In this document: positions 11,086 to 64,000 of the stretch, one piece after another
How positions within the stretch are numbered: the stretch's first letter is position 1
Layout: the number at the start of each line of letters is the position of its first letter
Assembly: GCA_041649495.1 (NCBI GenBank)
Contig: JBAZMZ010000003.1
Coordinates: 6,602 to 70,601 of the forward strand
Direction of reading: 5' to 3'
DNA length: 64,000 nt
Source of the DNA: Minisyncoccota bacterium
GTDB taxonomy: Bacteria > Patescibacteriota > Minisyncoccia > Phycocordibacterales > XYD1-FULL-46-19
Notes under the pieces: generated by a model
The model's input: the letters and a program-made list of their open reading frames with translations, nothing else
What the model was told of the DNA's origin: nothing
The model's database searches: none
Made by a program: the position numbers and the translations under genes

Positions 11086-12423
11086 GTGAGCGATTTTAGT
11101 TTTAAAATTGAGAAGAAGATGAAGACTGGCCTCGGGCGGGCTGGGGTGATTCACACGGCGCATGGCGATATTGAAACGCCAGCTTTTGTGACGGTGGGTA
11201 CCAAGGCGACGGTTAAAGCGCTGACGCCAGAAATGGTTAATAGTTTGGGTGCATCCGTAGTTTTGGCTAATACTTATCATCTCTATTTGGAACCCGGCGA
11301 TGAATTGGTGAAAAAGGCGGGCGGACTTCATCGTTTTATGAATTATGATGGGCCAATGATGACCGACTCGGGCGGGTTTCAAGTTTTTTCGCTTGGGGCA
11401 GCGTTCGGCGAAGGGGGAATTAGTAAGCTGATAAATGGCTTAACATCGGAAGTCGAACTTCGGAACATTAGTAAAATGGGGATAAATGGAGAGGGTGTTG
11501 CTAAACTAGCTAAGATTGATGAGGATGGCGTCACTTTCAAATCAGTGATTGATGGGTCGGAACATCGCTTCACACCCGAGCGCTCGATGCAAATCCAGCA
11601 TAATCTGGGCGCTGATATTATTTTTGCGTTTGATGAATGCACTTCGCCCTTGGCCGATTATGATTATCAGAAAGAGGCGATGGCGCGAACGCATCGTTGG
11701 GCGGAACGGTCGTTAAAAGAGCATCAAAGACTGATTCGCGAGGCAAATTCGAAGTCGGACTTAGTTACACAAAGTACGACTTCGAATCACCCCTCGCTCG
11801 ACGAGTCGGGTGAGCCCGAAGTCCAACTTCTGGGCACCTCGAAGTTGGACTTCAAGCCGACTACTCGACGATCCACTCTCCCGGCTTTGTTCGGTATTGT
11901 TCAGGGGGGTCGGCATCAGGATTTACGCGAAGAAAGTGCACGAATGATTGGGGCGATGGACTTTGCTGGGTTTGGTATTGGCGGGTCGTTTAATAAAGAA
12001 GATATGGGCACGGCCGTTGGTTGGGTCAGTGAAATTTTGCCGGAAGATAAGCCCAGACATTTGCTTGGGATTGGTGAGCCGGCGGATATTATTGAAGGCA
12101 TCAAGAATGGCGCCGATACTTTTGATTGTGTGACACCGACGCGGATGGCGCGCAATGGGACTTTGATGGTTAAAAATGGCAGGTTAAATATTCTTAACGC
12201 TCAATATCGCGAAGATTTGGGTCCAATTGAAAAAGGTTGTGGTTGCTATGTTTGCCAACTTAACTCTGACGGTACCGCCAAATATTCACGCGCTTATCTC
12301 GCCCACCTCTTTCGCGCCAAAGAAATCTTGGCTTCGACTCTGGCTTCGATTCATAACCTCTATTTCTTGATTCATTTGACCAAGCAGATTCGCCAAGACA
12401 TTTTAGCTGAAAAATTTAAATAA
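11086..12423 (+). CDS. tgt: queuine tRNA-ribosyltransferase with a ~45-aa in-frame repeat insert
   Basis: LGRAGVIHTAHGDIETPAFVTVGTKATVKALTPE, LANTYHLYLEPG, FGIVQGG, zinc site CGCYVC; region 11745-11880 (SKSDLVTQSTTSNHPSLDESGEPEVQLLGTSKLDFKPTTRR) is built from two mini-elements. Confidence 0.85.
   Translation: MSDFSFKIEKKMKTGLGRAGVIHTAHGDIETPAFVTVGTKATVKALTPEMVNSLGASVVLANTYHLYLEPGDELVKKAGGLHRFMNYDGPMMTDSGGFQVFSLGAAFGEGGISKLINGLTSEVELRNISKMGINGEGVAKLAKIDEDGVTFKSVIDGSEHRFTPERSMQIQHNLGADIIFAFDECTSPLADYDYQKEAMARTHRWAERSLKEHQRLIREANSKSDLVTQSTTSNHPSLDESGEPEVQLLGTSKLDFKPTTRRSTLPALFGIVQGGRHQDLREESARMIGAMDFAGFGIGGSFNKEDMGTAVGWVSEILPEDKPRHLLGIGEPADIIEGIKNGADTFDCVTPTRMARNGTLMVKNGRLNILNAQYREDLGPIEKGCGCYVCQLNSDGTAKYSRAYLAHLFRAKEILASTLASIHNLYFLIHLTKQIRQDILAEKFK
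11750..11853. repeat. tandem palindromic mini-elements in-frame in tgt
   Basis: CGAAGTCGGACTTAGTTACACAAAGTACGACTTCG at 11750-11784 and GAAGTCCAACTTCTGGGCACCTCGAAGTTGGACTTC at 11818-11853. Confidence 0.85.
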
Positions 12424-15156: not shown

Positions 15157-17817
15157 ATGGAAGAACATAAAATCAAAATTAAGGGGGCGCGAACGCATAA
15201 CCTTAAAAATATTAATTTAGAAATACCGCGCAATAAGCTAGTGGTTTTTACGGGTTTGTCGGGGTCGGGGAAATCAAGCCTGGCGTTTGATACGATTTTT
15301 GCCGAGGGTCAAAGACGCTATGTCGAATCCTTGTCGGCTTACGCGCGACAATTTTTGAAGCAATTGCCTAAGCCTGACGTGGACGAAATTTCGGGTTTGT
15401 CGCCAGCGATTTCGATTGATCAAAAATCTCGTTCGCATAACCCACGCTCAACGGTGGCCACGATTACCGAAATTTATGATTATTTGCGCGTGCTTTATGC
15501 CCGCATTGGTCAACCCCATTGTCCGGTTTGTGGCACGCGGATTGAGAAATTGTCGCACGAGGAAATTGTGAATTTTGTGAAAGCTAAGATGGATGAGGCT
15601 ACCGAAGTTGGACTTCGGGCTCATCGAAGTCCAACTTCTTCCGCCTTAGCCGCCTCTGTTACTTTACTTGCGCCGGTTGTGAGGGGCCGAAAAGGCGAGT
15701 ATTATCAATTGCTTTATGATTTAATCGAAAAAGGTTACTCCGAAGTTTTGATTGATGGCAAAAAGCACAAATTGCGCGAACGAATCATTCTGACTAAAAC
15801 CAAAAAGCACGATATCGATGTGGTAATCGATGAGATACCTTTAGCGGACTTTAATCAAAAGGTCACCAAGAACTCCCCTTTAAAAACTTCTCAAGGGAAG
15901 TCCTTGGCGACGATTGTGGCTTCAGCTAAATCTGACTCGGCTAATGAAAGATTGACTGAAGGGGTTGAGCGAGCGCTTAAAGAAGCCGATGGTTTGGTTA
16001 AAATTGTTATCAATGGCGAGATCTCTTTGTTGTCTTCAAAATTCGCTTGCCCCAACGACGGCTTCTCCTTCCCCGAAATTGAACCACGTCTTTTTTCGTT
16101 CAACTCGCCTTATGGCGCTTGCCCAGAGTGTCACGGTTTGGGCACCAAACATATGTGGGGCAATGAGATTTGCGAGGTTTGCCAAGGCGCGCGTTTGCGA
16201 CCGGAGGCCTTGCAGGTTAAAATCCCTTCGGCCAGCTCAGGGCAAGCTCTTAACATTGTCGAGACAGTTAACCTGTCAATTGGCGAAGCCAAAAAACTTT
16301 TCGAGACACTTAAACTTACGCCGAAAGAAAAAGCGATCTCCGAAGTTTTATTAAAAGAAATTGGCGCGCGATTAAAATTCTTAAATGATGTTGGCTTAGA
16401 TTATGTTGAGTTAAGCCGACGAGCCGACACGCTTAGTGGTGGTGAGGCTCAACGAATTCGTCTTGCTTCGCAACTTGGTTCGCGTTTGGTGGGCACGCTC
16501 TATGTGCTTGATGAACCAACAATTGGTTTGCACGCGCGTGACAATGATAAATTGATTAAGACCTTACTCGAGTTGCGTGATTTGGGCAACTCTATTGTGG
16601 TGGTTGAGCACGACGAGGACACGATTTTCGCTTCGGATTATTTAGTTGATATTGGACCTGGCGCCGGTGTGCATGGTGGGCATATTGTAGTGGCTGACGA
16701 GACTGACAAACTTTTAACCTCCAAGAAAAATGATTATCACTCACTAACCGTCGATTATCTGCGGGGTGATCTTGAAATCCCCGTACCGGAAAATCGGCGG
16801 ATTAAAGATAAGGGGACGATCAAAATTCGCGGTGGCAATATCTTTAATATCAAAAATCTCAATGTTGATATCCCTTTGGGGAGATTGGTGGCAATTACGG
16901 GCGTTTCGGGTTCGGGCAAATCGTCATTGATTTATGAAATTTTACACAAAAATTTACAGGGTCGGCTTGAACGACGTTATCGCACTAACGAGCTCTTTAA
17001 TTGTCACGAGTTTAGCGGGAGCGAATATTTAAGCCGAGTGGTAATGATTGACCAGTCACCAATTGGTCGCACCCCACGTTCGAATCCGGCCACTTATACT
17101 GGGGCCTTTACCTTTATTCGCGAATTATTGGCGGAGACGGCGCTGGCCCGAGCTCGGGGTTGGAAGGCGTCCCGCTTCTCCTTCAACGTGGCGGGGGGTC
17201 GGTGTGAGGCTTGTCAGGGCAATGGCGAAGTCGCGGTCGAAATGCATTTTTTGCCAACCATCTATGTCCCCTGCGATATTTGTCACGGAACAAGGTATGA
17301 AAAAGATACGCTTGAGGTGCAGTACAAGAAAAAAAATATCAGTCAGATTTTGCACCTGACGGTGGAAGAGGCGCTCGAATTTTTTAATGACATTCCCGCC
17401 ATTCATGATCGATTAAAAACGCTTAATGAAGTGGGGCTTGGCTATTTAGAATTAGGTCAATCGGCTACCGATTTGTCTGGGGGTGAAGCGCAACGGGTTA
17501 AGATTTCATCCGAACTTTATCGTCCTCATACTGAACGGACCTTGTATATATTAGATGAGCCGACTATTGGTCTCCATTACGAAGATGTTAAAAAGTTAAA
17601 TGAGATTTTGCAAAAATTAGTGGAGAAGGGGAATACGGTGGTGGTCATTGAGCATAATATGGAGGTAATTAAATGTGCCGATTATATTATTGATTTGGGG
17701 CCCGAAGGTGGGCTCGGTGGTGGAAATTTGGTGGCCAAGGGCACACCCGAAGAAGTGGCTTACGCGCCCGGGTCTCACACCGCCAAATATTTGAAGAGAG
17801 CCTTGCGGAAAAAATAA
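15157..17817 (+). CDS. uvrA: excinuclease ABC subunit A, with in-frame repeat inserts
   Basis: Two ABC ATPase modules ([14 protein letters not shown]; [11 protein letters not shown]; LSGGEAQR twice) and Zn-finger Cys clusters; inserts at 15604-15638 and 16227-16247. Confidence 0.9.
15604..15638. repeat. palindromic mini-element GAAGTTGGACTTC-GGGCTCATC-GAAGTCCAACTTC, in-frame in uvrA
   Basis: Same arms as the prmC copy at 458-493, in reversed order. Confidence 0.85.
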
Positions 17818-17821
17818 AAAA

Positions 17822-19207
17822 ATGAAGTCTCAAGACTTAAAAAAATACAAATTACCTGATTTGCCAGGGGTCTATTTTTTTCAACGGGATCGAGAAATTC
17901 TTTATGTTGGCAAAGCCACTTCACTCAAAGATCGCGTGAAGAGTTATTTTGCGGGTGATTTGGGAGAGACGAGAGGCCCCAAGATTACCCAGATGCTTAC
18001 TCTCGCCAATAAAATAAAGTGGCAAGAGACCGATTCTGTTCTCGAGGCTTTATTGTTGGAGACTGAATTAATTAAAAAGCATCAACCAGTTTATAATACC
18101 CGAGAAAAAGACGACAAGAGTTATTGGTTTGTTATTATCACCGATGAAGATTTTCCTCGGGTTCTCCCGATCCGTGGTCGTGAGCTAGAAGGGCGAGCTT
18201 TGGGAAGTCGTACTTCAAGTGAGCCCGAAGTCCGACTTCAAAAAACGAAGCCCGAATTTGTTTTTGGGCCATTTCCTTATGGTGGGGAATTGAAAGAGGC
18301 TCTTAAAATAATTAGGAAAATTTTTCCGTATCGAGACAAATGCTTGCCTTGCGTCGCTTCAGCGAAGCAGGGTGTGCCTTGTCGGTTGAGAGGTGAGTCC
18401 TCAAGTGAGCCCGAGGTCTCTCCTCGTAACCGATGCCGACCTTGCTTCAACCGGCAAATTGGTCTTTGCCCTGGTGTTTGCACGGGTGAAATTTCAAAAA
18501 TTAATTATCGAAAAATTGTGCGAAATATTGAGTTGCTTTTTAGGGGTAAGAAAAAAGAGATAGTAAAAAAATTAGAGCAAGAGATGAAGTCGCTGGCGAA
18601 AAAACGAGAATTTGAGAAAGCGAGTGAGGTGAGAGATCAAATTTTCGCCCTGAATCATATTCGAGATGTGTCTTTATTAAAAAAGAGAAGTTCGATTGGG
18701 CGAGATCGTCCAATAAGCCCTTACTCAATCCGTCTTGAGGCCTATGACATCGCTCATTTGGCGGGGACAAATACGACGGGGGCAATGGTGGTGTGGCAAA
18801 ATGGCGAATTAGATAAGCATGAATATAAAAAATTTAAATTAAGGGGGGTCAAAGCTGGCTCGCCTGACGATCTGGCTAATCTTCACGAGATTTTGGAACG
18901 ACGCTTTAATCACCCTGAGTGGCCTCAACCAGATATTATTGTGGTGGATGGCAATCAGGTGCAGGTTGAGGTGGCAAAAAAAGTAATTAAGAGTCAGGTG
19001 CGAAAAATGACTTCGGGCTCACCTGAAGTCGCGTTTCGCACCCCACAAGTCATTGCCGTGACTAAAGATGATAAACATCGAGCCTCAAGATTAATTGGCG
19101 ATCCGGCCATCATCCGCGATTATCGTCAGGCCATTATTGAGGTTAATGCTGAGGCTCATCGTTTTGCACTGGCCTACCATAGAAAATTACGCCGGCGATT
19201 GGTATAA
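17822..19207 (+). CDS. uvrC: excinuclease ABC subunit C, short form (GIY-YIG, UVR and RNase H-like domains; no C-terminal HhH), with two in-frame repeat inserts
   Basis: GIY-YIG N-terminus (LPGVYFFQRDREILYVGKATSLKDRVKSY), UVR motif, endoV/RNaseH-like region (EAYDIAHLAGTNTTGAMVV..DIIVVDGNQVQV); only 461 aa; inserts at 18204-18239 and 18389-18427. Confidence 0.8.
   Translation: MKSQDLKKYKLPDLPGVYFFQRDREILYVGKATSLKDRVKSYFAGDLGETRGPKITQMLTLANKIKWQETDSVLEALLLETELIKKHQPVYNTREKDDKSYWFVIITDEDFPRVLPIRGRELEGRALGSRTSSEPEVRLQKTKPEFVFGPFPYGGELKEALKIIRKIFPYRDKCLPCVASAKQGVPCRLRGESSSEPEVSPRNRCRPCFNRQIGLCPGVCTGEISKINYRKIVRNIELLFRGKKKEIVKKLEQEMKSLAKKREFEKASEVRDQIFALNHIRDVSLLKKRSSIGRDRPISPYSIRLEAYDIAHLAGTNTTGAMVVWQNGELDKHEYKKFKLRGVKAGSPDDLANLHEILERRFNHPEWPQPDIIVVDGNQVQVEVAKKVIKSQVRKMTSGSPEVAFRTPQVIAVTKDDKHRASRLIGDPAIIRDYRQAIIEVNAEAHRFALAYHRKLRRRLV
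18204..18239. repeat. palindromic mini-element with AAGTGAGCCC spacer, in-frame in uvrC
   Basis: GAAGTCGTACTTC-AAGTGAGCCC-GAAGTCCGACTTC. Confidence 0.8.
18389..18427. repeat. variant mini-element GAGGTGAGTCCTC-AAGTGAGCCC-GAGGTCTCTCCTCG, in-frame in uvrC
   Basis: Identical 39-bp copy in leuS at 41068-41106. Confidence 0.8.
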
Positions 19208-21694: not shown

Positions 21695-21794
21695 GGTAAA
21701 AACGGGTTATCCACTTTTTTGTAGGCTTTGGTGGTTTTTGATAAAAAGGCATTTTTGCTAGTAATTAGAGTAATTACTAGTTTTATTTTTAATT

Positions 21795-29463: not shown

Positions 29464-30546
29464 ATGAGTTTAAGTATTGGCATTGTGGGGTTACCAAACG
29501 TCGGGAAATCGACGTTGTTTAACGCGTTGACGCAAAAAGGGGTGCCGGCGGAGAATTATCCGTTTTGCACGATTGATCCAGCGGTCGGGATTGTGGCCGT
29601 GCCGGACGAACGAGTGGATATTTTGGCCGATTTTTCGCAGTCAGCGAAAAAAATTCCGGCGGCGATTGAATTCGTAGATATCGCCGGCTTGGTTAAGGGT
29701 GCCTCGGCGGGCGAAGGTTTAGGTAATCAATTTCTCTCGCATATTCGCGAGGTGGACGCGATTGCGGAAGTGGTGCGCGTTTACGAAGATTCTAATATTA
29801 CTCATGTTTCAAGTAAAATAGACCCGATTGATGATATTGAGACGATTAATCTCGAATTGATTTTGGCGGACGAGCAAACCGTGAGTAAACGCTTGGCGAA
29901 TTTAGCGCATGATGTTAAGCGGGGAGACAAAATTGCTCTGGCCGAAGAAGCGGTTTTACAAAAAGTTGAAGCCGTTTTGAAACGAGGGCAAATGGCGAAT
30001 TCTGTTTCTCTAATCAAAGAAGAGGAAGAGATTTTGAAAGGGATGCATCTTTTGTCGGCCAAGCCGATTTTGTATGTTTTAAACGCCAAAAATTCACTGA
30101 GAGGCGAGGCCTCTCAGTGGCCAGTCATTGAATATTTGGCGAAACTGGGGGCGAATCATGTGGTGGTTGACGCGAAAATTGAAGGGGAATTGTCCGAATT
30201 GGAAAAAGCGGATAAGGAAGTTTTCAAAAAAGAATTAGGGGTTGAGGATGATGGGATTAATGATTTGATTAAAGAGAGTTACCAGATGCTGGGCTTAATG
30301 ACTTTTCTGACAACCGGCGCCGACGAAACGCGGGCTTGGACGATTAAAAAAGATTCGACCGCGCCGGTAGCGGGCACCGCTATCCATACGGACTTTTTCG
30401 ATAAATTTATTAAAGCGGAAGTCATAAATTGGCAAGATCTGGTCAAAGCCGGCTCTTATGGTCTCGCCCGCGAAAAAGGTTTGGTGCGGACTGAAGGCAA
30501 GGACTACCTCGTCAAAGACGGTGATGTCATTGAATTCAAGATATGA
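29464..30546 (+). CDS. ychF: ribosome-binding ATPase YchF
   Basis: IGIVGLPNVGKSTLFNALT G1 motif, TGS domain at the C-terminus (YLVKDGDVIEFK). Confidence 0.9.
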   Translation: MSLSIGIVGLPNVGKSTLFNALTQKGVPAENYPFCTIDPAVGIVAVPDERVDILADFSQSAKKIPAAIEFVDIAGLVKGASAGEGLGNQFLSHIREVDAIAEVVRVYEDSNITHVSSKIDPIDDIETINLELILADEQTVSKRLANLAHDVKRGDKIALAEEAVLQKVEAVLKRGQMANSVSLIKEEEEILKGMHLLSAKPILYVLNAKNSLRGEASQWPVIEYLAKLGANHVVVDAKIEGELSELEKADKEVFKKELGVEDDGINDLIKESYQMLGLMTFLTTGADETRAWTIKKDSTAPVAGTAIHTDFFDKFIKAEVINWQDLVKAGSYGLAREKGLVRTEGKDYLVKDGDVIEFKI

Positions 30547-38472: not shown

Positions 38473-41400
38473 ATGGGAAAAAAATCTAAGGGGAGCAAAT
38501 ACGATCATTTAAAAATAGAGTCTAAATGGCAACGTGAGTGGAGTCGTTCCAAAACTTATCAAACTACCGAAACGACCGGTTCGACAAGCTCACGGCAAGA
38601 ATCTAAACCCAAAGCTTATGTTTTAGATATGTTCCCGTATCCGTCGGGGGAGGGTTTGCATGTCGGCCACCCCAAGGGTTATATCGCCACGGATGTTTAT
38701 TCGCGCTTTAAACGAATGAGTGGTTTTAATGTCTTGCACCCCATGGGTTGGGATGCTTTTGGTTTACCGGCCGAGAATTATGCGATTAAAAATAAAATTA
38801 ATCCGGCCGTGGCGGTGAAGAAGAATATCAAACATTTTAAATCACAGATGGAAAAGATTGGGCTCGATTATGATTGGTCTCGCGAAATCAACACCACCGA
38901 CCCCAAATATTACAAATGGACCCAATGGATTTTCTTACAATTGTTCAAGCGGGGATTGGCTTACCAATCGAATGAGCCGATTAATTGGTGCCCGTCTTGT
39001 CAAACTGGTTTAGCCAATGAAGATTTGGAGACCCGTTCGACAAGCTCAGGGCAAGCGGCCGTCTGTGAGCGTTGTGGTTCGCTCGTGATCAAAAAACCGA
39101 TCCGCCAATGGGTGCTCAAAATTACTAATTACGCTGAACGGTTATTGACTGATTTGGACGGCTTAAATTGGCCCGAATCAATCAAAGAATCACAAAGAAA
39201 TTGGATTGGCCGAAGCGAAGGGGCTGAAATTGATTTTCCCCTTCAAACTGGACCCCTTAAGTTTGTCATCCTGCACGGATGGAAAAGTAATAGCCGGCGT
39301 TGTTTTATTCCCTGGCTCAAGCGCGAGCTCGAAGAACGAGGCCACGAAGTAGTCGCCTTGGATCTTCCTCATCCCGTCGTGCCCAATATTGCAGAGCAAG
39401 TTGATTACGTTTTATCTAAAGTGACGTTTGACGCCAACACCATAATTATCGCTCATTCACTGGGCTCAATCGCGGCTTATCGAATTCTCGAAAAATTAAA
39501 AACGCCCATCAAGAAATTAGTCATTGTCGCTGGCTTAATTGAGCCAAAATTTCGAGACAAGGCCCGACCCGAAGCCAAATATCTCTTAAGTTGGAAATTT
39601 AATTTGGCTAAAATTAAAAAGAATGCTGGCCAAATTGTCATTCTTGAAGATCAAAATGACAATATTATCCCCAAAGGCGAATCACGGGTGATCCAACAAG
39701 CCTTAGGGGGCGAGGTTTACCAACTCGAAGCCCAAACGGCTCACTTCTGCGGGTCCGTTGAGCCGTTAGTCCTAGGGCATAGCCTAGACCGAGTCAAGAT
39801 CTTCACCACCCGCGCCGACACCCTTTTTGGTGCCACTTATTTAGTCCTCGCGCCAGAACATAAATTGATTTCTCAATTAAAAAAAGAAATTAGCAATTGG
39901 GTTGAGGTCACAAAATATATTAAACAAGCAGAAAAAAGAACCGAGATCGAGAGATCGACTGAAGGCCGAGAAAAAACAGGGGTCAAACTCGAAGGCGTGA
40001 GAGCGATTAATCCGATCAATAATGAAGAAATCCCAATTTTTATTGCCGATTATGTCTTACCTGGTTATGGCACGGGCGCAATTATGGCCGTACCGGCCCA
40101 CGACGAACGCGACCATCAATTTGCCAAGAAATTTGATTTGCCAATTGTGCCGGTAATTATCAAGGATTTGCCGACCACTCTTGATCATGTCGCCGAGGCT
40201 TATACTGGTTCAGGAAAAATGGTTAACTCCGGCCGATGGAATGGCCTTGATAATGAGCAAGTGGTCGATCCAATGATTAAATTTGTCCGCGGGAAAAAAG
40301 TGATTCGCTACAAATTACGCGATTGGGTTTTTTCACGCCAACGTTATTGGGGCGAACCGATTCCAATTGTCCACTGTGCTAAGTGTGGTCCAATGCCTGT
40401 GCCCGAAAAAGATTTGCCGGTCAAATTGCCGGCAGTTAAAAGTTACGCCCCCACCGGCACCGGCGAATCGCCTCTGGCCAACATTAAAAGCTGGGTCAAT
40501 ACCAAATGTCCGGCTTGTGGCGGGCCAGCCCAACGCGAGACCAATACCATGCCCCAATGGGCGGGTTCGTCTTGGTATTATTTGCGCTATATCGACCCTA
40601 AGAACGACAAGGCTCTCGCTGATCCTAAGAAATTAAATTATTGGTCACCAGTCGATATGTATGTGGGAGGCACCGAGCATGCGACTCGTCACTTAATCTA
40701 CGCGCGATTTTGGCATAAGTTTTTGCAGGATATCGGCATCGTCAAAAATTCCGAGCCATTTGCCCAACTTAAAAATCAAGGTTTAATTTCTGGTTCTGAT
40801 GGGAGGAAGATGAGCAAGCGTTGGGGTAATGTCATTAACCCCGACGATATTATTAAGAGTCATGGCGCCGATACCTTGCGGGTTTATGAGATGTTTATGG
40901 GTCCGTTTGAACAAGGAGTGTCGTGGAGCACCGACAACCTAATGGGCGCGCGCCGTTTTGTGGAGAAAATTTGGCGGTTGAACGGGAAAGTCGTTCCCGA
41001 GGCTAAGGTTGTGCGAAGTACGACTTCGGGCTCACTTGAAGTCGGACTTCTCACGACTGAATCAGCTTCCGAGGTGAGTCCTCAAGTGAGCCCGAGGTCT
41101 CTCCTCGGAAACAATGACTTCCTTTTGCACAAAACCATCAAACAAGTGACCGACGATATCAATCGCTTCAATTTTAACACCGCGATTTCGGCCTTAATGA
41201 TTCTCGCCAACGATTGGGACAAACTCAAGCAAATTTCAATCACTGATTTCAAAATCTTGCTTAAATTATTGGCCCCGTTGGCCCCACATTTGAGCGAAGA
41301 ATTATGGCATAATTTGGGCGAGAAAAAATCAATTCATCTCTCAACCTGGCCCGTGGCCGATCCACAAAAATTGATAACGAAAGAGGTCAAAATCGTGGTC

Positions 41401-41568
41401 CAAATTAACGGCAAGGTCCGCGCAACCCTCGATTTGCCCGTCGGCCAGATTGAGGAAGAAGTCATTAATCTCGCCTTAGCCAACCCGATGGTACAAAAAT
41501 GGTTACCCGCTGGTCAATACAAAAAAACTATATTTATCAAGGATAAATTACTCAACTTTGTGTTATAA
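38473..41568 (+). CDS. leuS: leucine--tRNA ligase with an inserted YdeN/RBBP9-type alpha/beta-hydrolase domain and several in-frame repeat inserts
   Basis: HVGHPKGY (HIGH), KMSKRWGN (KMSKS), editing-domain and anticodon-binding regions; 1031 aa; hydrolase domain at 39241-39780; repeats at 38580, 39036 and 41015-41106. Confidence 0.9.
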   Translation: MGKKSKGSKYDHLKIESKWQREWSRSKTYQTTETTGSTSSRQESKPKAYVLDMFPYPSGEGLHVGHPKGYIATDVYSRFKRMSGFNVLHPMGWDAFGLPAENYAIKNKINPAVAVKKNIKHFKSQMEKIGLDYDWSREINTTDPKYYKWTQWIFLQLFKRGLAYQSNEPINWCPSCQTGLANEDLETRSTSSGQAAVCERCGSLVIKKPIRQWVLKITNYAERLLTDLDGLNWPESIKESQRNWIGRSEGAEIDFPLQTGPLKFVILHGWKSNSRRCFIPWLKRELEERGHEVVALDLPHPVVPNIAEQVDYVLSKVTFDANTIIIAHSLGSIAAYRILEKLKTPIKKLVIVAGLIEPKFRDKARPEAKYLLSWKFNLAKIKKNAGQIVILEDQNDNIIPKGESRVIQQALGGEVYQLEAQTAHFCGSVEPLVLGHSLDRVKIFTTRADTLFGATYLVLAPEHKLISQLKKEISNWVEVTKYIKQAEKRTEIERSTEGREKTGVKLEGVRAINPINNEEIPIFIADYVLPGYGTGAIMAVPAHDERDHQFAKKFDLPIVPVIIKDLPTTLDHVAEAYTGSGKMVNSGRWNGLDNEQVVDPMIKFVRGKKVIRYKLRDWVFSRQRYWGEPIPIVHCAKCGPMPVPEKDLPVKLPAVKSYAPTGTGESPLANIKSWVNTKCPACGGPAQRETNTMPQWAGSSWYYLRYIDPKNDKALADPKKLNYWSPVDMYVGGTEHATRHLIYARFWHKFLQDIGIVKNSEPFAQLKNQGLISGSDGRKMSKRWGNVINPDDIIKSHGADTLRVYEMFMGPFEQGVSWSTDNLMGARRFVEKIWRLNGKVVPEAKVVRSTTSGSLEVGLLTTESASEVSPQVSPRSLLGNNDFLLHKTIKQVTDDINRFNFNTAISALMILANDWDKLKQISITDFKILLKLLAPLAPHLSEELWHNLGEKKSIHLSTWPVADPQKLITKEVKIVVQINGKVRATLDLPVGQIEEEVINLALANPMVQKWLPAGQYKKTIFIKDKLLNFVL
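39241..39780 (+). other. inserted serine-hydrolase (YdeN/RBBP9, PF06821-like) domain within leuS
   Basis: LKFVILHGWKSNSRRCFIPWLKRELEERGHEVVALDLPHPVVP...IIIAHSLGSIAAYRILEK...VIVAGLIEP...IVILEDQNDNIIP...VYQLEAQTAHF parallels B. subtilis YdeN (IIHGY..HWFPWLKK..LVAHSLG..VSGF..VIASKDDQIVP..LYEV..GHF), including the GxSxG nucleophile and Asp/His positions. Confidence 0.7.
41015..41106. repeat. two mini-elements in-frame near the leuS C-terminal region
   Basis: GAAGTACGACTTC-GGGCTCACTT-GAAGTCGGACTTC (spacer is the reverse complement of AAGTGAGCCC) then GAGGTGAGTCCTCAAGTGAGCCCGAGGTCTCTCCTCGG, identical to uvrC 18389. Confidence 0.85.
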
Positions 41569-44831: not shown

Positions 44832-46067
44832 TTGAGAGTGACTAGGAAGAAAAAACGAGTTTTCGTCGGTATGAGTGGGGGAGTTGATAGCTCGGTTTCG
44901 GCCGCTTTATTAAAAAGGGCCGGTTTTGAGGTAATCGGGGTATTTATTCGAGTCTGGGAGCCCAGTGGTTTTGTTTGTCGCTGGCGTGAAGAGAGGCGAG
45001 AAGCCAGACGAGCCGCCGCTCATTTAGATATTCCACTCTCAACTCTCGATTTAAGTCGTGAATATAAGAAAAGGGTGGTTGATTATTTCATTGCTGAATA
45101 TAAGTCTGGCCGAACCCCCAACCCCGACGTGATGTGCAATAAACATATTAAGTTTGGCGTATTTTATGATTGGGCCATGAAAAATGGCGCGGACTTTGTC
45201 GCCACGGGGCACTACGCACAAATTTGCAACAAATTTGTGCCAAAATTTCAAACCATAAATTCTAAACTCGAAACAAGTATTAAATTCCAAAGTTTAAAAT
45301 TTAAAAAATTAAATATTGTTTCGGATTTAGAAATTAATATTTCGAATTTGCCAAGTTTTTGCCAGAGTAAAGACTTGGCCAAGGATCAAACTTATTTCTT
45401 GTGGAATCTTAAAGCCGAGCAACTTGCCAAAATTCTTTTTCCCGTGGGCCAATACACCAAACCGCAAGTTCGCGCTTTAGCCAAGAAATTTGGCTTGCCC
45501 AATGCTGAGAAAAAAGACAGTCAGGGTTTATGCTTTATCGGTAAAATTGATTTTAAAGATTTTCTCAAGCGGGAAATTTATGGAAAAAGGGGGACTTGCC
45601 CCGAGCGGAGTCGAGGGGGTGTTTTAAACGAGCAGGGAAAAGTAATCGGCCAACATGACGGCGCGATGTTTTTCACTTTAGGCGAACGCCACGGTTTCGA
45701 AATTTTCTCGCAGACATCAGACTCCAAACCCTATTACATCGTCGCTAAAGATATTAAGAAAAACACGCTCACTGTTTCTCCTAATTTTAATCAAGGGCAG
45801 GCCTTGACTTCTGAAGTCAAAATTGAAAAAACTAATTGGATCAACCAGTCAAGCGACCTGGAGGTTAAACCTCTGGGCGCCTCGAGGTTTAACCTCCAAG
45901 CCAGAGTCCGTTACCGTCAACCGCTTCAAGCTTGCCACTTGACGCAGGTCGACAATAAAAAAAGCACCGCTACCATAAGCTTCTCTAAACCACAACTCGC
46001 CGTCTCGGGCCAATCACTGGTCCTCTACGACCAAAATATCTGTCTCGGTGGGGGAATTATTGTTTAA
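44832..46067 (+). CDS. mnmA: tRNA 2-thiouridylase MnmA, with a low-complexity insert and a CPERSRGG repeat
   Basis: PP-loop VGMSGGVDSSVSA, KDQTYFL, catalytic Cys context; ~50-aa AT-rich insert (~45230-45380) before KDQTYFL; repeat at 45597-45619. Confidence 0.85.
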   Translation: MRVTRKKKRVFVGMSGGVDSSVSAALLKRAGFEVIGVFIRVWEPSGFVCRWREERREARRAAAHLDIPLSTLDLSREYKKRVVDYFIAEYKSGRTPNPDVMCNKHIKFGVFYDWAMKNGADFVATGHYAQICNKFVPKFQTINSKLETSIKFQSLKFKKLNIVSDLEINISNLPSFCQSKDLAKDQTYFLWNLKAEQLAKILFPVGQYTKPQVRALAKKFGLPNAEKKDSQGLCFIGKIDFKDFLKREIYGKRGTCPERSRGGVLNEQGKVIGQHDGAMFFTLGERHGFEIFSQTSDSKPYYIVAKDIKKNTLTVSPNFNQGQALTSEVKIEKTNWINQSSDLEVKPLGASRFNLQARVRYRQPLQACHLTQVDNKKSTATISFSKPQLAVSGQSLVLYDQNICLGGGIIV

Positions 46068-46099
46068 AAACAAGTATTTTTCGATATCCAATCTCGTAA

Positions 46100-46425
46100 A
46101 CTGTTTTATTTTTGAAAGTTTTTTGCTAAACTTAATTAGGAGGTGATGTGAAAATGTCAGGCTTAGGTCCAATACCTACCGGGCAACCGGTGGGGGACGA
46201 ACCAGGTCCAGTGCCCGAGACCGACGACTGGCCAGATACTTTGGAGGTCCTAGGCTGCCACCCAGATGGACCCCTGCCAGAGCCAGGGAGAGAACCTGTC
46301 TTCCTGGAACATGATGGGTGTTTCGCCGACCATCAACAACATAAGTGATCCATTGATGGTCGACACCGGGGCTTTCCTGTTGGAAGGCCCCTTAGTGCTT
46401 ATCGTAAAATATGATAGAATAGTTC
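46100..46425. other. GC-rich leader/intergenic region upstream of alaS (possible regulatory RNA; unidentified)
   Basis: ~60% GC block between mnmA and alaS; overlapping ORFs on both strands are Pro/Gly-rich translations of GC-rich DNA. Confidence 0.25.
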
Positions 46426-48509: not shown

Positions 48510-48616
48510 CCTCCATGGTAACATCCCTGATCGTCAGGGATGTTACCAGTTGAGACTTTTTCATTTTTCCACTTATTACTTAACACTTAATACTTATTAC
48601 TGTTATAATATCCTCA

Positions 48617-50354: not shown

Positions 50355-50865
50355 GCTTGTTTCAATAGCGGGTCGGGAGGTTCAACCTCCTCGCGGAAAG
50401 TAAATGTGTTGTAATTTAAATGTTAACCAAAATTTGCGATCGTTGGGAATGGTTAACATTTTTGGGAAAGCTTATCGCCAACTTAATTCTCGTTAACCAA
50501 AAGCTCCGCCGAGGTGATAAAACCTGGCGGAGCGTGAAGACAAACAATCTTGGAGAGAAGGAAGCTAGACGATGTTCCCATATCAACGGTGGCACAACAA
50601 GACCCCTCAGGGATTCCACGGTCCGTGAACCAAACGGGGTAGGCCCTTTTCCCCTCGCGACGATTCCCGTCTTTATCAAAAGTGGGAAAGAGCAATCCCT
50701 CGACAAGGTCTTCGTGGCCAGGTACACGGCTAGCACCAAGGGGAAGATCTCCCCCATACAGAGTTTGGTGGCTCAGAAACAATGACTGAGCCGAGATTCT
50801 TGAACGGACCAGAATATGGTCCACAAGATAACCCCTCCCCGCTATGGCATCTTCTCTCAAACACC
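50355..50865 (+). ncRNA. rnpB: candidate RNase P RNA (bacterial type A-like) with an AT-rich P3 expansion
   Basis: ~510 nt with no coherent ORF; 8-bp closing helix AUAGCGGG(50362)/CCCGCUAU(50852); GGAAAG near the 5' end; CGGUCCGUGAACCAAACGGGGUAGGC resembles the E. coli P15 region CGGCCCGUACUGAACCCGGGUAGGC; 3' UGGUCCACAAGAUAACCCC resembles UGUCCACGACAGAACCCGG (P18/P4 3' strand). Confidence 0.4.
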
Positions 50866-57244: not shown

Positions 57245-57655
57245 ATGCCAACTAAAGAAAACAAGGAGAAATACTATGAGGGAGTGGGCCGACGCAAAAC
57301 GGCGACCGCGCGGGTTCGAATTACTCCGGCGAACAAAGACAGTTTTGAAATCAACGACCAAAAGCTCGAGGCCTATTTCCCAACTATCGAAATGCGCGAA
57401 CGAGTCAAAAAAGCGTTAGCCAAAATTGGTGAACATGGCACTTTTGCCGTTACGGTTAAGTCCAACGGTGGGGGAATTAGTGGCCAAACCGATGCGGTAA
57501 TTATGGGCCTCGGCCGAGCCATCATCGCTCATAAGCCAGAAACTAAGCCGGAGATGAAGAAGGAGGGGATGACTACCCGCGACGACCGCGCCAAAGAACG
57601 TCGCAAATTCGGCCTCAAAAAAGCCCGCAAATCTCCACAGTGGAGCAAACGTTAA
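57245..57655 (+). CDS. rpsI: 30S ribosomal protein S9
   Basis: YEGVGRRKTATARVRI...GGGISGQTDAVIMGLGRAI...ERRKFGLKKARKSPQWSKR. Confidence 0.9.
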   Translation: MPTKENKEKYYEGVGRRKTATARVRITPANKDSFEINDQKLEAYFPTIEMRERVKKALAKIGEHGTFAVTVKSNGGGISGQTDAVIMGLGRAIIAHKPETKPEMKKEGMTTRDDRAKERRKFGLKKARKSPQWSKR

Positions 57656-57699
57656 ACCCGAATTTCCCCAAAAAACTCTTCCGCAAAAATCTCCAAACT

Positions 57700-57949
57700 C
57701 TTGGGGGTTTTTGCTTTTTATCCAATCTATGCAATAATACTGTTAGACAACTCCTGCTTTCTGCCTCAAGTCTTCGGACAGAAACCCACCTTTTTGTGGG
57801 TAGGTTGGGCGAGAAAAGGGCCCCTTTGTGGATGCCCCCCTCGCCACAGGCGGATCGTATTCCACGTCCCGTTTCTGCACGATTCGCGCCGGGGATGTAA
57901 AAAAGGGAGTTGTTTAGGGGGTGTGCCGTTCGCGGCCCCCCGTTTTTTT
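57700..57949 (+). ncRNA. GC-rich ~250-nt intergenic element ending in an intrinsic terminator; candidate sRNA (SRP/6S-type not confirmed) or IS-proximal structure
   Basis: ~55% GC block between rpsI and the transposon; hairpins CCCACCTTTTTGTGGG and GGGGGTGTGCCGTTCGCGGCCCCCC followed by T7 at 57916-57949; no ORF with protein character. Confidence 0.3.
57916..57949 (+). terminator. rho-independent terminator
   Basis: GGGGGTGTGCCG-TTCG-CGGCCCCCC then GTTTTTTT. Confidence 0.6.
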
Positions 57950-57988
57950 ATCCCCAGCAAACCACACTTACCCCCACATTACCAATGT

Positions 57989-58860
57989 ATCGAAGTCGAA
58001 CTTCGGAAGTATGGTAAAAAGTGGATAATTAGAAAAAGTCTTAAGATCTATTATCAAACCCGAGGCTATTCAAACGACAAATGGCCAAGATCCGAAAAGT
58101 CTAAATCTTTTAACCACCTTATCAAATCTTCTTCTGAAAAATCAATGTCAAAACTTGGAAGAAATTCTTTGTTGAGAGTCTTAGAATAATAATTTTGGCC
58201 ACAATAATCAGCCAAGCTGGACCATCGATAACTTAGCAGAAAGTGAGCTGCTCGTTCCCAATCAGAAATCTCCCTTTCCTTCCAATTACTTTCTATCAAA
58301 TCCAAAGGATTAAAATGGATATAAAAAGGCAAATAAGTTAAATATTCCTCATCTTCGATCAACACCGATTTAAATTTACCCTGAAAAAGCGGGCCCACAC
58401 GCTCATGTTTGATATTAAAATAATTAGTATAGCCAGTGCCCATTTTTCGCATGAATTCCGTTAAACCATTTTCAACCAAGGGTCGGACAATCAGATGGAA
58501 ATGGTTAGGCATCATAACAAAAGCCAAAATATCAACCATGCGATCTCGATTGTCTTTATCCTCCAAACGAGTTTGTCCACAAACACGGCTATTCTCAACT
58601 GGTCTAGCATCGTTATACAAAAAAAGACTGTCGGCAAAACGAGAGCGATCAACATTATCAACAAAAATATCCCTTTTTTCCACCCCTCGGTTGAAGACAT
58701 GAAAAATGCCACCAAAATCAGTTTCCTCCATTTTAACCTCCATATGACCTATATAATGTCTTGAAATACTATCGAAGTCGAACTTCGGAAGTATGGTAAA
58801 AAGTGGATAAGTCAGCAAAAAGACTAAAAAACCCTTATTTATCGGAAGTCGAACTTCGAT
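57989..58860 (-). mobile_element. IS200/IS605-family-like element (tnpA only) bounded by same-orientation subterminal hairpins
   Basis: 40-bp direct copies ATCGAAGTCGAACTTCGGAAGTATGGTAAAAAGTGGATAA at 57989-58028 and 58771-58810, plus a third hairpin CGGAAGTCGAACTTCGAT at 58843-58860; the interior encodes a Y1 HUH transposase; hairpin core matches the genome-wide GAAGTC..GACTTC mini-elements. Confidence 0.6.
58066..58743 (-). CDS. tnpA: Y1 (HUH) tyrosine transposase, IS200-like / REP-associated (RAYT-like)
   Basis: HUH motif MMPNHFHLIV and Tyr region GTGYTNYFNIKHERVGPLFQGKF (Y..Q); start taken at MEVKMEETDF because the upstream in-frame codons are the terminal hairpin itself. Confidence 0.65.
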   Translation of the reverse strand: MEVKMEETDFGGIFHVFNRGVEKRDIFVDNVDRSRFADSLFLYNDARPVENSRVCGQTRLEDKDNRDRMVDILAFVMMPNHFHLIVRPLVENGLTEFMRKMGTGYTNYFNIKHERVGPLFQGKFKSVLIEDEEYLTYLPFYIHFNPLDLIESNWKEREISDWERAAHFLLSYRWSSLADYCGQNYYSKTLNKEFLPSFDIDFSEEDLIRWLKDLDFSDLGHLSFE

Positions 58861-58896
58861 ATTGCAAGGTAAAATTATGGTGGTATAATAACCACC

Positions 58897-59460
58897 ATGG
58901 ACAAAAAATCTGACGTTGACATTGAATTTGAGGAGAATACTGAAGATCGAGCGCCAGAAGGGGCAGATTTGGCCGAAAAATTGAAGAGATTAAGAGCTGA
59001 GGTCAAAACCTGCCACACTGAACGCGCCGAATATCTAGCTGGCTGGCAGAGAGCCAAGGCGGACTATCTGAACCTTAAAAAAGAGCAGGAGGAGAATCGC
59101 CACGAGATTGGCCGTTGGGCTAAGGAAGGGGTACTAACTGACCTTTTCATCATCGCCGACAGTTTCGAAATGGCTTTTGGCAACAAAGAGGCTTGGGAGC
59201 AGGCACCAGAGAATTGGCGCAAAGGCATTGAGTACATCTACAATCAACTCCAAACCATTTTCCGCGATCACGGTGTCGAAGAGATCAGTCCGAAGATTGG
59301 TGACAAATTTAATCACGCCGAGCAAGAACCAATTGGCACGGTCCCAACCGAAAGCGAAGCTGAAGATGACGAGATTGCCGAGGTAATTAAAAAAGGTTAC
59401 AAATTGCACGGCAAGATCGTAAGACCAGCTAGTGTTAGGGTAAAACACTTCTCAAAATAA
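58897..59460 (+). CDS. grpE: nucleotide exchange factor GrpE
   Basis: Coiled-coil region (LKRLRAEV..RAEYLAGWQRAKADYLNLKKEQEE) and GrpE beta-domain (EVIKKGYKLHGKIVRPASVRV). Confidence 0.85.
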   Translation: MDKKSDVDIEFEENTEDRAPEGADLAEKLKRLRAEVKTCHTERAEYLAGWQRAKADYLNLKKEQEENRHEIGRWAKEGVLTDLFIIADSFEMAFGNKEAWEQAPENWRKGIEYIYNQLQTIFRDHGVEEISPKIGDKFNHAEQEPIGTVPTESEAEDDEIAEVIKKGYKLHGKIVRPASVRVKHFSK

Positions 59461-61564: not shown

Positions 61565-61599
61565 GTTTAGAAGTCGTATCTCGCGTAGCCAGATCCGAC
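61565..61599. repeat. palindromic mini-element GAAGTCGTATCTCGCGTAGCCAGATCCGACTTCGA, intergenic copy 3' of dnaK
   Basis: Identical to the in-frame copy at 9670-9704. Confidence 0.85.
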
Positions 61600-61698
61600 T
61601 TCGAAACCGGCTCATTAAAAAAATTGAATAGGAAAACCCGCCGGCGATGAACGTCAACGGATAATCCGTTTTCGTCTCGCGCGACGGGTTGTTATGAG

Positions 61699-63467: not shown

Positions 63468-63485
63468 TCGCTAAAAACCCTTATT

Positions 63486-63530
63486 GTGCGATATCCAATC
63501 TCGCACAGTATGGTAAAAAGGGGATAAGTT
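63486..63530. repeat. solo IS-end-like sequence (GTGCGATATCCAATCTCGCAC hairpin plus AGTATGGTAAAAAGGGGATAAGTT)
   Basis: Tail matches the transposon ends at 58005 and 58787; TCGATATCCAATCTCG also occurs at 46081 after mnmA. Confidence 0.6.
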
Positions 63531-63545
63531 AAAAATATTATCAAA

Positions 63546-64000
63546 TGGAAACTTGGATTAAAGTGCGGAACAAAATTATCTCGTGGAAATATCGGTGGAT
63601 TTTGAAACCGATTTTGTTTAAGTTTGATCCGGAAAATGTGCATAATTGGTTTATCGAGATTGGCAAATTTTTGGGGAAATTTAGAGCGACTAATTGGCTA
63701 ACGAAAATTTGCTTTGACTATGAGAATCCAACTCTTGAGCAAGAAATTTTAGGCATCAAATTTAAAAATCCAATTGGGCTCGCGGCCGGCTTCGACAAAA
63801 ACGCCGAGATGATTGATATTATGCCAGCGGTCGGGTTTGGGTTTACCGAAGTGGGATCCGTGACTGGGCGAGCGTGTGAGGGGAACGCGCGACCGCGACT
63901 TTGGCGTCTGCCAAAGTCGCGGGGTTTAATTGTTTATTATGGGCTGAAGAATAATGGGGCGGAGGAAGTCGTACTTCACGTAGCCAAGTCCGACTTCCGA
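63546..64000 (+). CDS. pyrD: dihydroorotate dehydrogenase (N-terminal part; continues beyond window) with an in-frame mini-element at the window edge
   Basis: LGIKFKNPIGLAAGFDKNAE, GFGFTEVGSVT, RPRLWRL; the last 36 bp (GAAGTCGTACTTCACGTAGCCAAGTCCGACTTCCGA) are a mini-element read in-frame. Confidence 0.7.

Follow-up and report, generated by a model that had tools for sequence, protein, structure and literature searches.

Here, we describe a gene for a putative single-stranded DNA endonuclease, together with the short hairpins that accompany it, between rpsI and grpE in 64,000 nucleotides (nt) of a Patescibacteria genome (Minisyncoccota bacterium, contig JBAZMZ010000003.1; this whole stretch is hereafter called the window). 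Judged by its motifs and modelled fold, the protein is a class 2 TnpA_Y1 that resembles the REP-associated tyrosine transposases (RAYTs; REP, repetitive extragenic palindrome), and is not an IS200 TnpA. We think it likely that gene and hairpins form a REPtron-like system, in which a vertically inherited gene for a RAYT-type nuclease of the HUH (histidine–hydrophobic residue–histidine) kind is flanked by its cognate hairpin, TATCGAAGT-N3-ACTTCGATA. The fold and catalytic motifs of the protein, the co-variation of gene and hairpin across the family, the dispersal of the hairpins and their status as insertions, and the long residence of the gene are the observations that carry this reading. As sequence comparison with relatives indicates, the locus is a long-resident RAYT-type gene, present as a single copy in the window, rather than an IS200 element of recent arrival.

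Most of the known REP/RAYT systems come from Proteobacteria, Cyanobacteria and Bacteroidetes, and they have been treated as extragenic ‘replicators’ accompanied by a domesticated transposase. In the scheme of Quentin et al. 2018 (PMC6006769), TnpA_Y1 proteins are told apart by the motif Y---NP, the mark of class 2 (RAYT-like), and Y---Q, the mark of the IS200 subclass. A first-pass annotation of the window, made from its letters alone, had described the element as IS200-like or RAYT-like; the HUH/Y1 superfamily and the RAYT likeness hold, and the IS200/IS605 half of that description gives way to the Y---NP motif, the length of 225 amino acids, the C-terminal WSS motif and the synteny described below.

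A RAYT-like protein with class 2 catalytic motifs

The gene and the hairpins around it are arranged as follows.

57945–57987, strand not assigned: inverted, degenerate tail (TTATCCCCA...CATTACCAATG) between rpsI and the left hairpin, recognized by eye
57988–58028, plus strand: left copy of the 41-nt hairpin and tail unit, with hairpin TATCGAAGT-CGA-ACTTCGGA (57988–58007) followed by tail AGTATGGTAAAAAGTGGATAA
58066–58743, minus strand: RAYT-like class 2 TnpA_Y1 HUH endonuclease gene (225 amino acids plus stop), predicted from motif, profile and fold evidence
58572–58585, strand not assigned: weak internal palindrome GTTTGTCCACAAAC, coding for RVCGQTR (about residues 53–59)
58770–58810, plus strand: right copy of the 41-nt unit, 100% identical to the left copy, tail towards grpE
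58826–58861, plus strand: AAAAAACCCTTATT module and third hairpin TATCGGAAGT-CGA-ACTTCGATA, directly abutting the −35 element of the grpE promoter
58862–58889, plus strand: grpE promoter-like site (TTGCAA, 16-nt spacer, TATAAT, with TG before TATAAT), conserved in the relative L002

The protein carries its HUH pair, H81 and H83, in MPNHFHLIV (core PNHFHL) and its catalytic tyrosine, Y141, in YIHFNP; LFQGKF and YRWSS are further motifs. The minus-strand HUH open reading frame (ORF) was thus correctly recognized in the first-pass annotation, with a length of 226 residues where we count 225 plus stop. A probable start codon, ATG at 58731 with GGAGG five nt upstream, would give a 221-residue product, as called in public data (P0001). 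In an alignment of 33 family members the invariant blocks are YH.xNRGVxKRxIF, MxNHxH (HUH), GxGYxxxFNxxxxRxGxLFQ, YIHxNP and YxWSS, and all 38 residues invariant in the family are present in the window protein; among them are both catalytic histidines, the catalytic tyrosine and the Y, I, H and N of YIHFNP. The Y..Q tyrosine region typical of IS200, which had been reported earlier, is not what is conserved: the sole Y..Q string is YCGQ (residues 180–183), and its glutamine varies in the family.

A sequence search of the Protein Data Bank (PDB) with the family profile gave marginal matches only (E 0.13–0.59), so a fold search was needed. The AlphaFold2 model (mean pLDDT 81, pTM 0.82) matches 4er8, E. 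coli TnpA_REP with a REP hairpin, best of all PDB entries (E 6.8e-5, probability 1.0), followed by the IS608, ISDra2 and IS200 transposases; probabilities for 4er8 and for the IS608 and ISDra2 TnpA proteins are 0.99–1.0. In a hidden Markov model (HMM) alignment with 4er8, PNHYH falls on PEHMH, LFQGKF on IWQPRF and YIHLNP on YIYINP. The combination of Y---NP with HUH, and 4er8 as the best fold match, places the protein in class 2, and Y---NP in place of Y---Q separates it from the IS200 TnpA proteins. A Pfam scan detected no Bac_DnaA_C or helix-turn-helix (HTH) domain in the C terminus.

The family is a large Patescibacteria clade. We found more than 1,178 homologues of about 225 residues, nearly all annotated ‘transposase’ and from Patescibacteria metagenome-assembled genomes, and most of them have a precomputed PF01797 match. 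A profile search of 1.84 billion cluster representatives returned 1,419 (50%-identity clusters) at E<=1e-30 and 15,193 at E<=1e-10.

Cognate hairpins flank the gene and co-vary with it

The two copies of the 41-nt unit (TATCGAAGTCGAACTTCGGAAGTATGGTAAAAAGTGGATAA, at 57988–58028 and 58770–58810, spacing 782) form a perfect direct repeat, which the first-pass annotation had seen as same-orientation copies of 40 bp. The left copy lies 37 nt past the stop codon of the ORF and the right copy lies 26–38 nt upstream of its start, the ORF being on the opposite strand. The third hairpin that had been noted further on is also present (TATCGGAAGTCGAACTTCGATA, 58840–58861), 29 nt beyond the right copy. By eye, the degenerate left tail matches the reverse complement of the tail at ~14/20 positions; its counterpart in the relatives L002 and L210 is TTATCCCCACTTTTGTATAGTT. 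This arrangement recurs in two independent assemblies, a JGI contig (L203, 99.8% identity over 4,868 nt) and a Logan contig (L001, 100%), and is therefore not an assembly artefact.

To place this gene within its family, we surveyed 80 loci from contigs of one genome per species, sampling roughly 12 kb around each (counts below reach 82 loci and 85 genes). At most of the 80 loci the same perfect palindrome with a 3-nt loop stands both upstream and downstream of the gene, and its sequence differs by lineage; at 51 of 82 loci at least two copies of one palindrome with a 7-bp stem and 3-nt loop lie at the gene. Throughout the family the hairpin top follows GA[AG]GT-N3-AC[CT]TC, and the lower stem is particular to each lineage; identical loops and reverse-complementary loops are about equally frequent. 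Stem similarity follows protein similarity (Spearman rho 0.27, a value reached in 0 of 500 permutations), and in genomes with two family members the paralogues are 40–53% identical, each with its own hairpin. Lineage-specific hairpins, their co-variation with the protein, and divergent paralogues that each keep a hairpin of their own are RAYT/REP-like, and the opposite of IS200 behaviour.

The hairpins also enter the gene itself. In 42 of 85 family genes, the ORF contains a copy of the gene's own cognate hairpin, placed at one of two hot spots (about residues 55–65 and 155–165) and in all three frames (for example L008 6144, L014 6178, L025 4685 and L041 6454, from the set L003–L082), with stems of up to 16 bp that encode peptides such as EVGLP or RGSTS. 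The weak palindrome of the window gene lies at the first of these, aligns with an intact internal hairpin, GTGCGATATCCAATCTCGCAC (RVCDIQSR), in the orthologues L204, L209 and L210, and is probably the remnant of such a hairpin. The only IS-like duplication among about 85 genes is in L026 (1284–2990), a tandem, 100% identical hairpin–gene–hairpin duplicate with a period of 925 nt, which could be real or an assembly artefact.

A probable single, old acquisition between rpsI and grpE

We compared the rpsI–grpE junctions of relatives, using the identity of their GrpE to that of the window as a ruler.

Window and L203 (same strain): RAYT, minus strand
L204 (GrpE 88%): RAYT, plus strand
L002 (GrpE 84%): RAYT, minus strand
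L206 (GrpE 83%): two unrelated genes instead
L208 (GrpE 81%): empty, 65-nt spacer without hairpin
L207 (GrpE 80%): RAYT, plus strand
L209 (GrpE 77%): RAYT, plus strand
L210 (GrpE 76%): RAYT, plus strand
L211 (GrpE 64%): empty

In a neighbour-joining tree of 86 members, the six syntenic RAYTs (window/L203, L002, L204, L207, L209 and L210) form an exclusive clade. The minus-strand pair, window and L002, is 68% identical in the alignment (63% by tblastn), and the plus-strand group L204, L207, L209 and L210 shares 71–83% mutual identity and 52–56% with the minus-strand pair. Because occupancy of the junction predates the split of lineages with 76–88% GrpE identity, and the genes form an exclusive clade, the insertion is old and not a recent hop of an insertion sequence (IS). 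The simplest reading of these sequences would be one old acquisition, vertical descent, one orientation change and later losses. The insertion event suggested by the first-pass annotation is hence borne out by the empty junctions, with an ancient date in place of a recent one. Its proposal that the element occupies the usual place of hrcA is not: relatives without the gene have rpsI directly before grpE. The search for further full copies and empty sites that it recommended gave a divided answer, with empty junctions in L208 and L211, one family member in the 64-kb window, and, elsewhere, in-genome paralogues of only 40–53% identity. Synteny with grpE is confined to this close clade; we rejected it for the whole family, as dnaK lies nearby only in L003 and L042 of the 80 loci (<=50% identity).

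The hairpin type changes in place along this series. It is TATCGAAGT-CGA/TCG-ACTTCGATA in the window and L002, GAAGT-TGG/CCA-ACTTC in L207 and, in L204, L209 and L210, the very dissimilar GTGCGA-TATCCAATC-TCGCAC, found within the gene and on both sides of it. A module consisting of AAAAACCCTTATT, a hairpin and TTGCA (the grpE −35 element) is conserved in all syntenic loci, its order at grpE being kept in L002, L204, L207, L209 and L210, and its hairpin is always of the local RAYT's type. Since the hairpin type of a conserved module switches with the local RAYT, these sequences offer direct evidence that hairpins adjoining the gene are kept matched to the enzyme, and we infer that hairpin and RAYT have co-evolved at the rpsI–grpE junction. 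In L209 (3130–3177), we also observed a GC-rich palindrome nested in the loop of the upstream hairpin (GTGCGA GACCCGCCTGCCTAGGCATTTCGGGCAGG TTGGATA TCGCAC), a hairpin within a hairpin.

The flanks in L002, the nearest relative, are inverted copies of a 43-nt repeat at 81% identity, and both tails point outward; the window has a degenerate outward left tail (57945–57987) and a perfect inward copy, giving the 41-nt direct repeat. A repeat that is perfect in the window and 81% identical in the sister lineage implies that the unit was recently copied or converted. We rejected a simple inversion between flanking inverted repeats, which fails to explain the direct repeat and, as a single clean event, misfits the module order.

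Dispersed hairpins lie in frame within housekeeping genes

The core of the flanking hairpin, GAAGT-N3-ACTTC, occurs at 16 sites in the window (the three flanking hairpins and 13 more) against 0.04 expected, and 0 of 100 shuffles reach 16; it is indeed, as the first-pass annotation had it, the arm motif of the dispersed and in-gene palindromes. The in-gene pairs of prmC, tgt, uvrA, uvrC and leuS listed below are among the 16. The related core GAGGT-N3-ACCTC has three sites. Elements of defined structure in the window are as follows.

458–493, strand not assigned: paired-hairpin mini-element GAAGTCCAACTTC-AAGTGAGCCC-GAAGTTGGACTTC (13 + 10 + 13 nt), in prmC
11818–11853 (tgt), 15604–15638 (uvrA), 18204–18239 (uvrC), 41015–41050 (leuS): like pairs
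63965–64000: like pair, cut by the window end, in a pyrD-like gene
1020–1062, plus strand: hairpin TATCGAAGT-TCG-ACTTCGATA with tail-like sequence, in frame in prmC/hemK, preceded by CCTTATT
11443–11490, plus strand: hairpin and tail copy ATCGGAAGTCGAACTTCGGAAC ATTAGTAAAATGGGGATAAATGG, in frame in tgt, within a 34-residue insertion relative to solved TGT structures
63473–63530, plus strand: AAAAACCCTTATT, second-type hairpin GTGCGA-TATCCAATC-TCGCAC and tail AGTATGGTAAAAAGGGGATAAGTT, downstream of dnaJ

The in-gene pairs consist of two inverted hairpins and a spacer, a layout like that of REPINs. Alignment with solved homologues places the palindromes of tgt in insertions of 34 and 50 residues and that of uvrA in a 17-residue insertion (a gap in the solved homologue), and the hairpin at 1020–1062 in prmC is a 9-residue insertion relative to E. 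coli HemK, exactly at the hairpin. The in-gene palindromes are thus true insertions in UvrA, Tgt and PrmC. A hairpin and tail unit also occurs in an intergenic region of the relative L098 (93% identity over 41 nt). The pyrD-like (DHO_dh) gene has the GAAGT-type pair in the window (63965–64000) and a different palindrome, GACCTGCCTGCCGGCAGGCAGGTC, in the same loop in L098 (3916–3975), so that this loop looks, from the two sequences, like an insertion hot spot or a site of replacement.

The second hairpin family, GTGCGA-TATCCAATC-TCGCAC with its 9-nt loop, is the cognate flanking and internal hairpin of the L204, L209 and L210 RAYTs (L204 4197–4217, 4403–4423 and 4939–4959; L210 3141–3161 and 3887–3907). 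The window RAYT uses the other hairpin, and the window holds one perfect second-family copy and two degenerate, loop-like ones (46081–46100 and 57716–57736). The perfect copy (63486–63506, after dnaJ) is identical to the hairpin that both flanks and interrupts the orthologous genes of L204 and L210, and is embedded between the same AAAAACCCTTATT and tail modules; the tail copy reported after dnaJ is present at 63509–63527. The tail-only copy reported after mnmA, at 46081, finds no match to the tail even with three mismatches; that site has CGATATCCAATCTCG in common with the second hairpin family. In L098 the stem reads GTTCGA...TCGAAC, its two arms having changed in a compensatory way.

A metagenome scan for the 21-nt palindrome gave at least 120 stretches; among the matches listed, 12 adjoin a RAYT homologue and about a third lie within long ORFs. 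In a hand tally of the listed matches, in-gene loops showed no orientation bias relative to the coding strand (CGG 7 against CCG 8, TGA 2 against TCA 4), and we therefore draw no inference on strand targeting.

Several further repeats were noted in the window. A perfect 36-nt repeat, AGAAGTCGTATCTCGCGTAGCCAGATCCGACTTCGA, at 9669–9704 and 61569–61604, represents a paired-hairpin mini-element in degenerate form; as it escapes the strict search for GAAGT-N3-ACTTC, the mini-elements of the window are undercounted. The adjacent sequence CACAAAGTACGACTTC recurs too, at 9634 and about 11775. In uvrC and leuS there is another element type, GAGGTGAGTCCTC-AAGTGAGCCC-GAGGTCTCTCCTC, which has the spacer AAGTGAGCCC in common with the pairs.

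The GAGGT-N3-ACCTC hairpins comprise a pair in mnmA (45861–45896) and a single copy, GGAGGTTCAACCTCC (50377–50389). Hairpins of this type flank the RAYTs of other lineages (for example L031, L034 and L058), which may point to a second such system that this genome has or once had.

Relation to known REP systems

The closest counterparts are the REPtrons of E. coli (YafM/RayT, PDB 4er8) and Pseudomonas (class 2, PMC6006769). With these the system has in common the HUH and Y---NP motifs, the best-matching fold (4er8), vertical inheritance, flanking by a hairpin family that is also dispersed in the genome, paralogues that each have their own hairpin, protein–hairpin co-variation and REPIN-like inverted pairs. 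It differs in its host group, the Patescibacteria (Candidate Phyla Radiation, CPR); in its protein, 225 residues long with a WSS domain at the C terminus and an NCBIfam RAYT score under the cut-off; and in its hairpins, short palindromes of perfect stem and 3-nt loop that have the conserved top GA[AG]GT/AC[CT]TC, lack a GT[AG]G foot and are not GC-rich, many of them being intragenic and in frame. Canonical REPs, which have a 5′ GT[AG]G foot, an imperfect GC-rich stem and an extragenic location, are likewise not matched by these perfect, AT-containing and often intragenic stems.

In-frame hairpins have a precedent in subclass 2.4 (Bertels group 4; Cyanobacteria and Bacteroidetes), where REPs lie in frame inside tnpA_REP and unrelated genes, much as an internal cognate hairpin occupies 42 of 85 genes here. 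The subclass has WQ and YIxNNP where this family has FQ and YIHxNP (PMC6006769), and its REPs are long or ‘double-foot’ with GT[AG]G; the hot spots here lie before the HUH motif (about residues 55–65) and after the Y motif (about residues 155–165).

Another parallel for tolerated insertions comes from outside the Y1 systems. The Rickettsia palindromic elements, mini-elements of about 100–150 bp, sit in frame in coding sequences of a reduced genome, where the proteins tolerate the additional peptide; they are not known to have a cognate Y1 enzyme. The units described here are shorter (13–40 nt) and have a cognate RAYT-like gene.

Proposed mechanism and alternative explanations

We propose a mechanism by analogy with E. 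coli TnpA_REP and IS608 TnpA (PMC3479197, PMC3333891, PMC6006769). The enzyme would bind its folded hairpin on single-stranded DNA, for example at a replication fork, cleave through Tyr141 with a metal held by His81 and His83, and rejoin the strands; cleavage and rejoining would copy, move or homogenize hairpin mini-elements, either singles with a roughly 22-nt tail or inverted pairs resembling REPINs. These may spread genome-wide; some would land in frame where housekeeping genes encode surface loops and, in many relatives, also within the RAYT gene. On the same analogy, we take the protein to be catalytically active, the strand and positions of its cleavage being likewise inferred, and find it plausible that the hairpins owe their movement to the predicted enzyme and not to host recombination or replication slippage.

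Several points weigh against a REPtron-like system. PF01797 (Y1_Tnp), the Pfam check that the first-pass annotation called for, matches at E 1.7e-4 with 22.1 bits, just under the gathering score of 23 (profile positions 38–119 of 121), and this profile aligns just partly with class 2 proteins in general (Quentin et al. 2018, PMC6006769). The companion check against a RAYT profile gave a match to NCBIfam NF047646 (REP_Tyr_transpos, an equivalog model; E 1.8e-10) at 40.9 bits, below the cut-off of 80, so that the window protein is not an equivalog of proteobacterial RAYT. Three hallmarks of canonical REPs, namely the GT[AG]G foot, an imperfect and GC-rich stem, and confinement to sites outside genes, are missing from the hairpins, and the motifs of the protein are nearest to subclass 2.1, reported as REP-less and associated with terminal inverted repeats (TIRs) (PMC6006769). 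Further hairpin copies more than 300 nt from the gene occur in just 13 of 82 loci (roughly 12 kb sampled at each), and hairpin abundance may be modest in many lineages. The perfect 41-nt repeat, finally, could stem from ordinary gene conversion and not from the enzyme.

A more conventional explanation is an autonomous IS200/IS605 element, with the 41-nt repeats as subterminal hairpin ends and a recent single-stranded transposition into the rpsI–grpE spacer. Same-orientation hairpins on both sides of the gene, a HUH/Y1 fold in common with the IS608 and ISDra2 TnpA proteins, the empty junctions in L208 and L211 and the identical tandem duplicate of gene and hairpins in L026 are all as it would predict, and hairpins near both gene ends with hairpin-based non-autonomous derivatives are familiar from IS608, ISDra2 and the palindrome-associated transposable elements (PATEs). 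Yet elements of that kind have Y---Q, about 150 residues, often tnpB, and multiple copies of about 99% identity, none of which we met: the protein has Y---NP and 225 residues with a C-terminal WSS domain, tnpB is absent, there is one copy in 64 kb, and paralogues are 40–53% identical where IS200 copies reach about 99% (Table 1, PMC6006769). Six lineages moreover keep the gene at one site as an exclusive clade, with RAYT identity down to about 50%, and the flanks in L002 are inverted, not direct. Synteny and motifs thus appear to have largely refuted this explanation, which we regard as highly improbable.

The motifs leave more room for a TIRYT-like mobile unit of the subclass 2.1 type (Bertels group 1), that is, a Y1 gene that moves or moved with its own terminal inverted repeats of hairpin and tail and was once inserted in the rpsI–grpE spacer of an ancestor. 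The hairpins would then not be REPs of a domesticated enzyme, and the dispersed copies would be solo ends or derivatives resembling PATEs or miniature inverted-repeat transposable elements. NH[YF]H, FQ, Y[IV]HLNP and a C-terminal SS, with a length of about 238 residues, are the second motif set listed for subclass 2.1, the home of most TIRYTs (PMC6006769), and the 43-nt repeats of L002 (81% identity, each a tail and a hairpin) are terminal inverted repeats around the gene. The tail, compared by eye, resembles the 3′ end of the ORF in plus-oriented orthologues (TATACAAATCTGTGGATAG); solo hairpin and tail units occur in tgt, prmC and L098, and the junction is empty in L208 and L211 and replaced in L206. 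The tentative placement in 2.1 is one by motifs, and the Pfam scan detected no HTH or DnaA_C-like domain in the C terminus, a further mark of the subclass. Subclass 2.1 is reported without REP-like hairpins, which flank most members of this family, and its published repeats, GGGG[AT][CG]A[CG], are unlike these (PMC6006769). Against movement as a unit, the gene copies are monophyletic and syntenic with no sign of recent movement, the 41-nt repeats of the window are direct and not inverted, and the tail is missing from the majority of dispersed copies, which are bare hairpins or inverted pairs. We consider this reading unlikely, if the most serious of the competitors.

The hairpins could also be host cis-elements (a grpE operator, sites bearing DnaA boxes or structures that stabilize transcripts), with the protein a domesticated sequence-specific binder or regulator and the dispersal unrelated to it. 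The third hairpin does abut the −35 element of a strong grpE promoter, a position kept in five relatives, and control of the hrcA/CIRCE type is not evident at the grpE operon; TTATCC[AC]C, a DnaA-box-like motif, reaches 1.37 per kb within 45 nt of RAYT-flanking hairpins against 0.16 per kb, an enrichment of about 8-fold. But the grpE promoter regions of the empty-site relatives L208 and L211 are free of hairpins, for which reason we rejected the hairpin as a grpE operator replacing HrcA/CIRCE; the many hairpins in coding sequence, in all three frames, suit mobile insertion and not an operator; the catalytic histidines and tyrosine are invariant across the family; and the enrichment is restricted to roughly a dozen of about 80 loci. 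This explanation seems to us very unlikely, and a REPtron-like system remains the reading that we favour.

Other features of the window

DnaA-box-like motifs were seen in tails and some stems. TGTGGATAA is perfect in L002 (1973–1981), L098 (12300–12308), and L029 and L044 (in stems), and the window has the variants GTGGATAA / GGGGATAA (58008–58030, 58790–58812, 63507–63530 and 11466–11490). We rejected the tail as a DnaA box or origin signal as a general reading, the motif being found in a minority of lineages.

Housekeeping proteins of the window contain extra segments relative to solved homologues: 50 residues in PrmC, 34 and 50 in Tgt, and 17 in UvrA. Such segments are often rich in serine, threonine and proline and hold one or more palindromic mini-elements. 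The genes with extra segments, elements or both are listed here.

prmC: 383–1387
tgt: 11086–12423
uvrA: 15157–17817
uvrC: 17822–19207
leuS: 38473–41568

Of palindromes with a stem of at least 6 bp and a 3-nt loop, the window has 40 where shuffles have about 16. Further long palindromes, all perfect, with stems of 10–15 bp and 3-nt loops (48516–48548, 30095–30119, 45216–45240, 5015–5037 and 21758–21780) are unrelated in sequence to the GAAGT family (for example TGGTAACATCCCTGA-TCG-TCAGGGATGTTACCA).

On the rpsI side of the locus, two features precede the left hairpin.

57655: end of rpsI, with a terminator at 57683–57714
57744–57950: GC-rich stretch of ~200 nt that follows the rpsI terminator and closes with another terminator-like hairpin and T-run (57918–57950), ahead of the left hairpin

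The GC-rich stretch has a 12-bp closing helix, TAGACAACTCC / GGAGTTGTTTA, and a folding z-score of −3.1, and is missing from the shorter spacer of L002; it is possibly a small RNA gene or a structured insert. Rfam scans (the whole window at gathering thresholds, and 57600–58900 at E up to 10) gave nothing credible near the element and only tRNAs elsewhere, and we rejected a known RNA in the spacer between rpsI and the RAYT gene on this ground.

The grpE promoter-like site is a feature of the neighbouring gene that adjoins the element. It ends 7 nt ahead of the grpE ATG (58897) and there is no Shine–Dalgarno sequence (window 58862–58897; L002 1894–1925, minus strand), which suggests a leaderless or near-leaderless grpE mRNA, predicted for L002 as well.

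Significance

RAYT plus REP/REPIN systems, including insertion in frame into genes, are already known. A literature search for REP or RAYT in CPR, Patescibacteria or Parcubacteria found nothing relevant, most subscription journals lying outside the search. Within the literature searched, several aspects appear to be new: the CPR/Patescibacteria host and the size of the clade; a short, perfect hairpin with a 3-nt loop and no GTAG foot, and its heavy use of coding sequence; two fixed hot spots of self-insertion; an in-place switch of hairpin type at one syntenic locus; and the pairing of REP-like hairpins with a protein whose motifs resemble those of the reportedly REP-less subclass 2.1.

These features lead us to a broader proposal, to which we give an even chance of being right: that this is an undescribed CPR clade of RAYTs (more than 1,400 clusters at 50% identity), whose mini-hairpins (GA[AG]GT-N3-AC[CT]TC) routinely colonize coding sequence in frame (essential genes including uvrA, uvrC, tgt, leuS, prmC and mnmA, and two fixed loops of the nuclease gene) and would be a major source of the odd peptide insertions of CPR proteins, and that the enzyme–hairpin pair co-evolves in place, switching hairpin type and orientation.

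If so, the logic of REP/RAYT systems would extend to the reduced genomes of the CPR, with very short perfect hairpins tolerated inside essential proteins, and a defined enzyme family would be linked to unexplained insertions in CPR proteins. For annotation, ‘IS200 transposase’ is best avoided for these genes, as is reading the locus as a recent insertion. The short hairpins and their 225-residue enzyme form a compact, testable pair for predicted single-stranded DNA recognition, and the occupied, inverted, hairpin-switched and empty states of the rpsI–RAYT–grpE locus offer a natural series in which the co-evolution of enzyme and hairpin may be followed.

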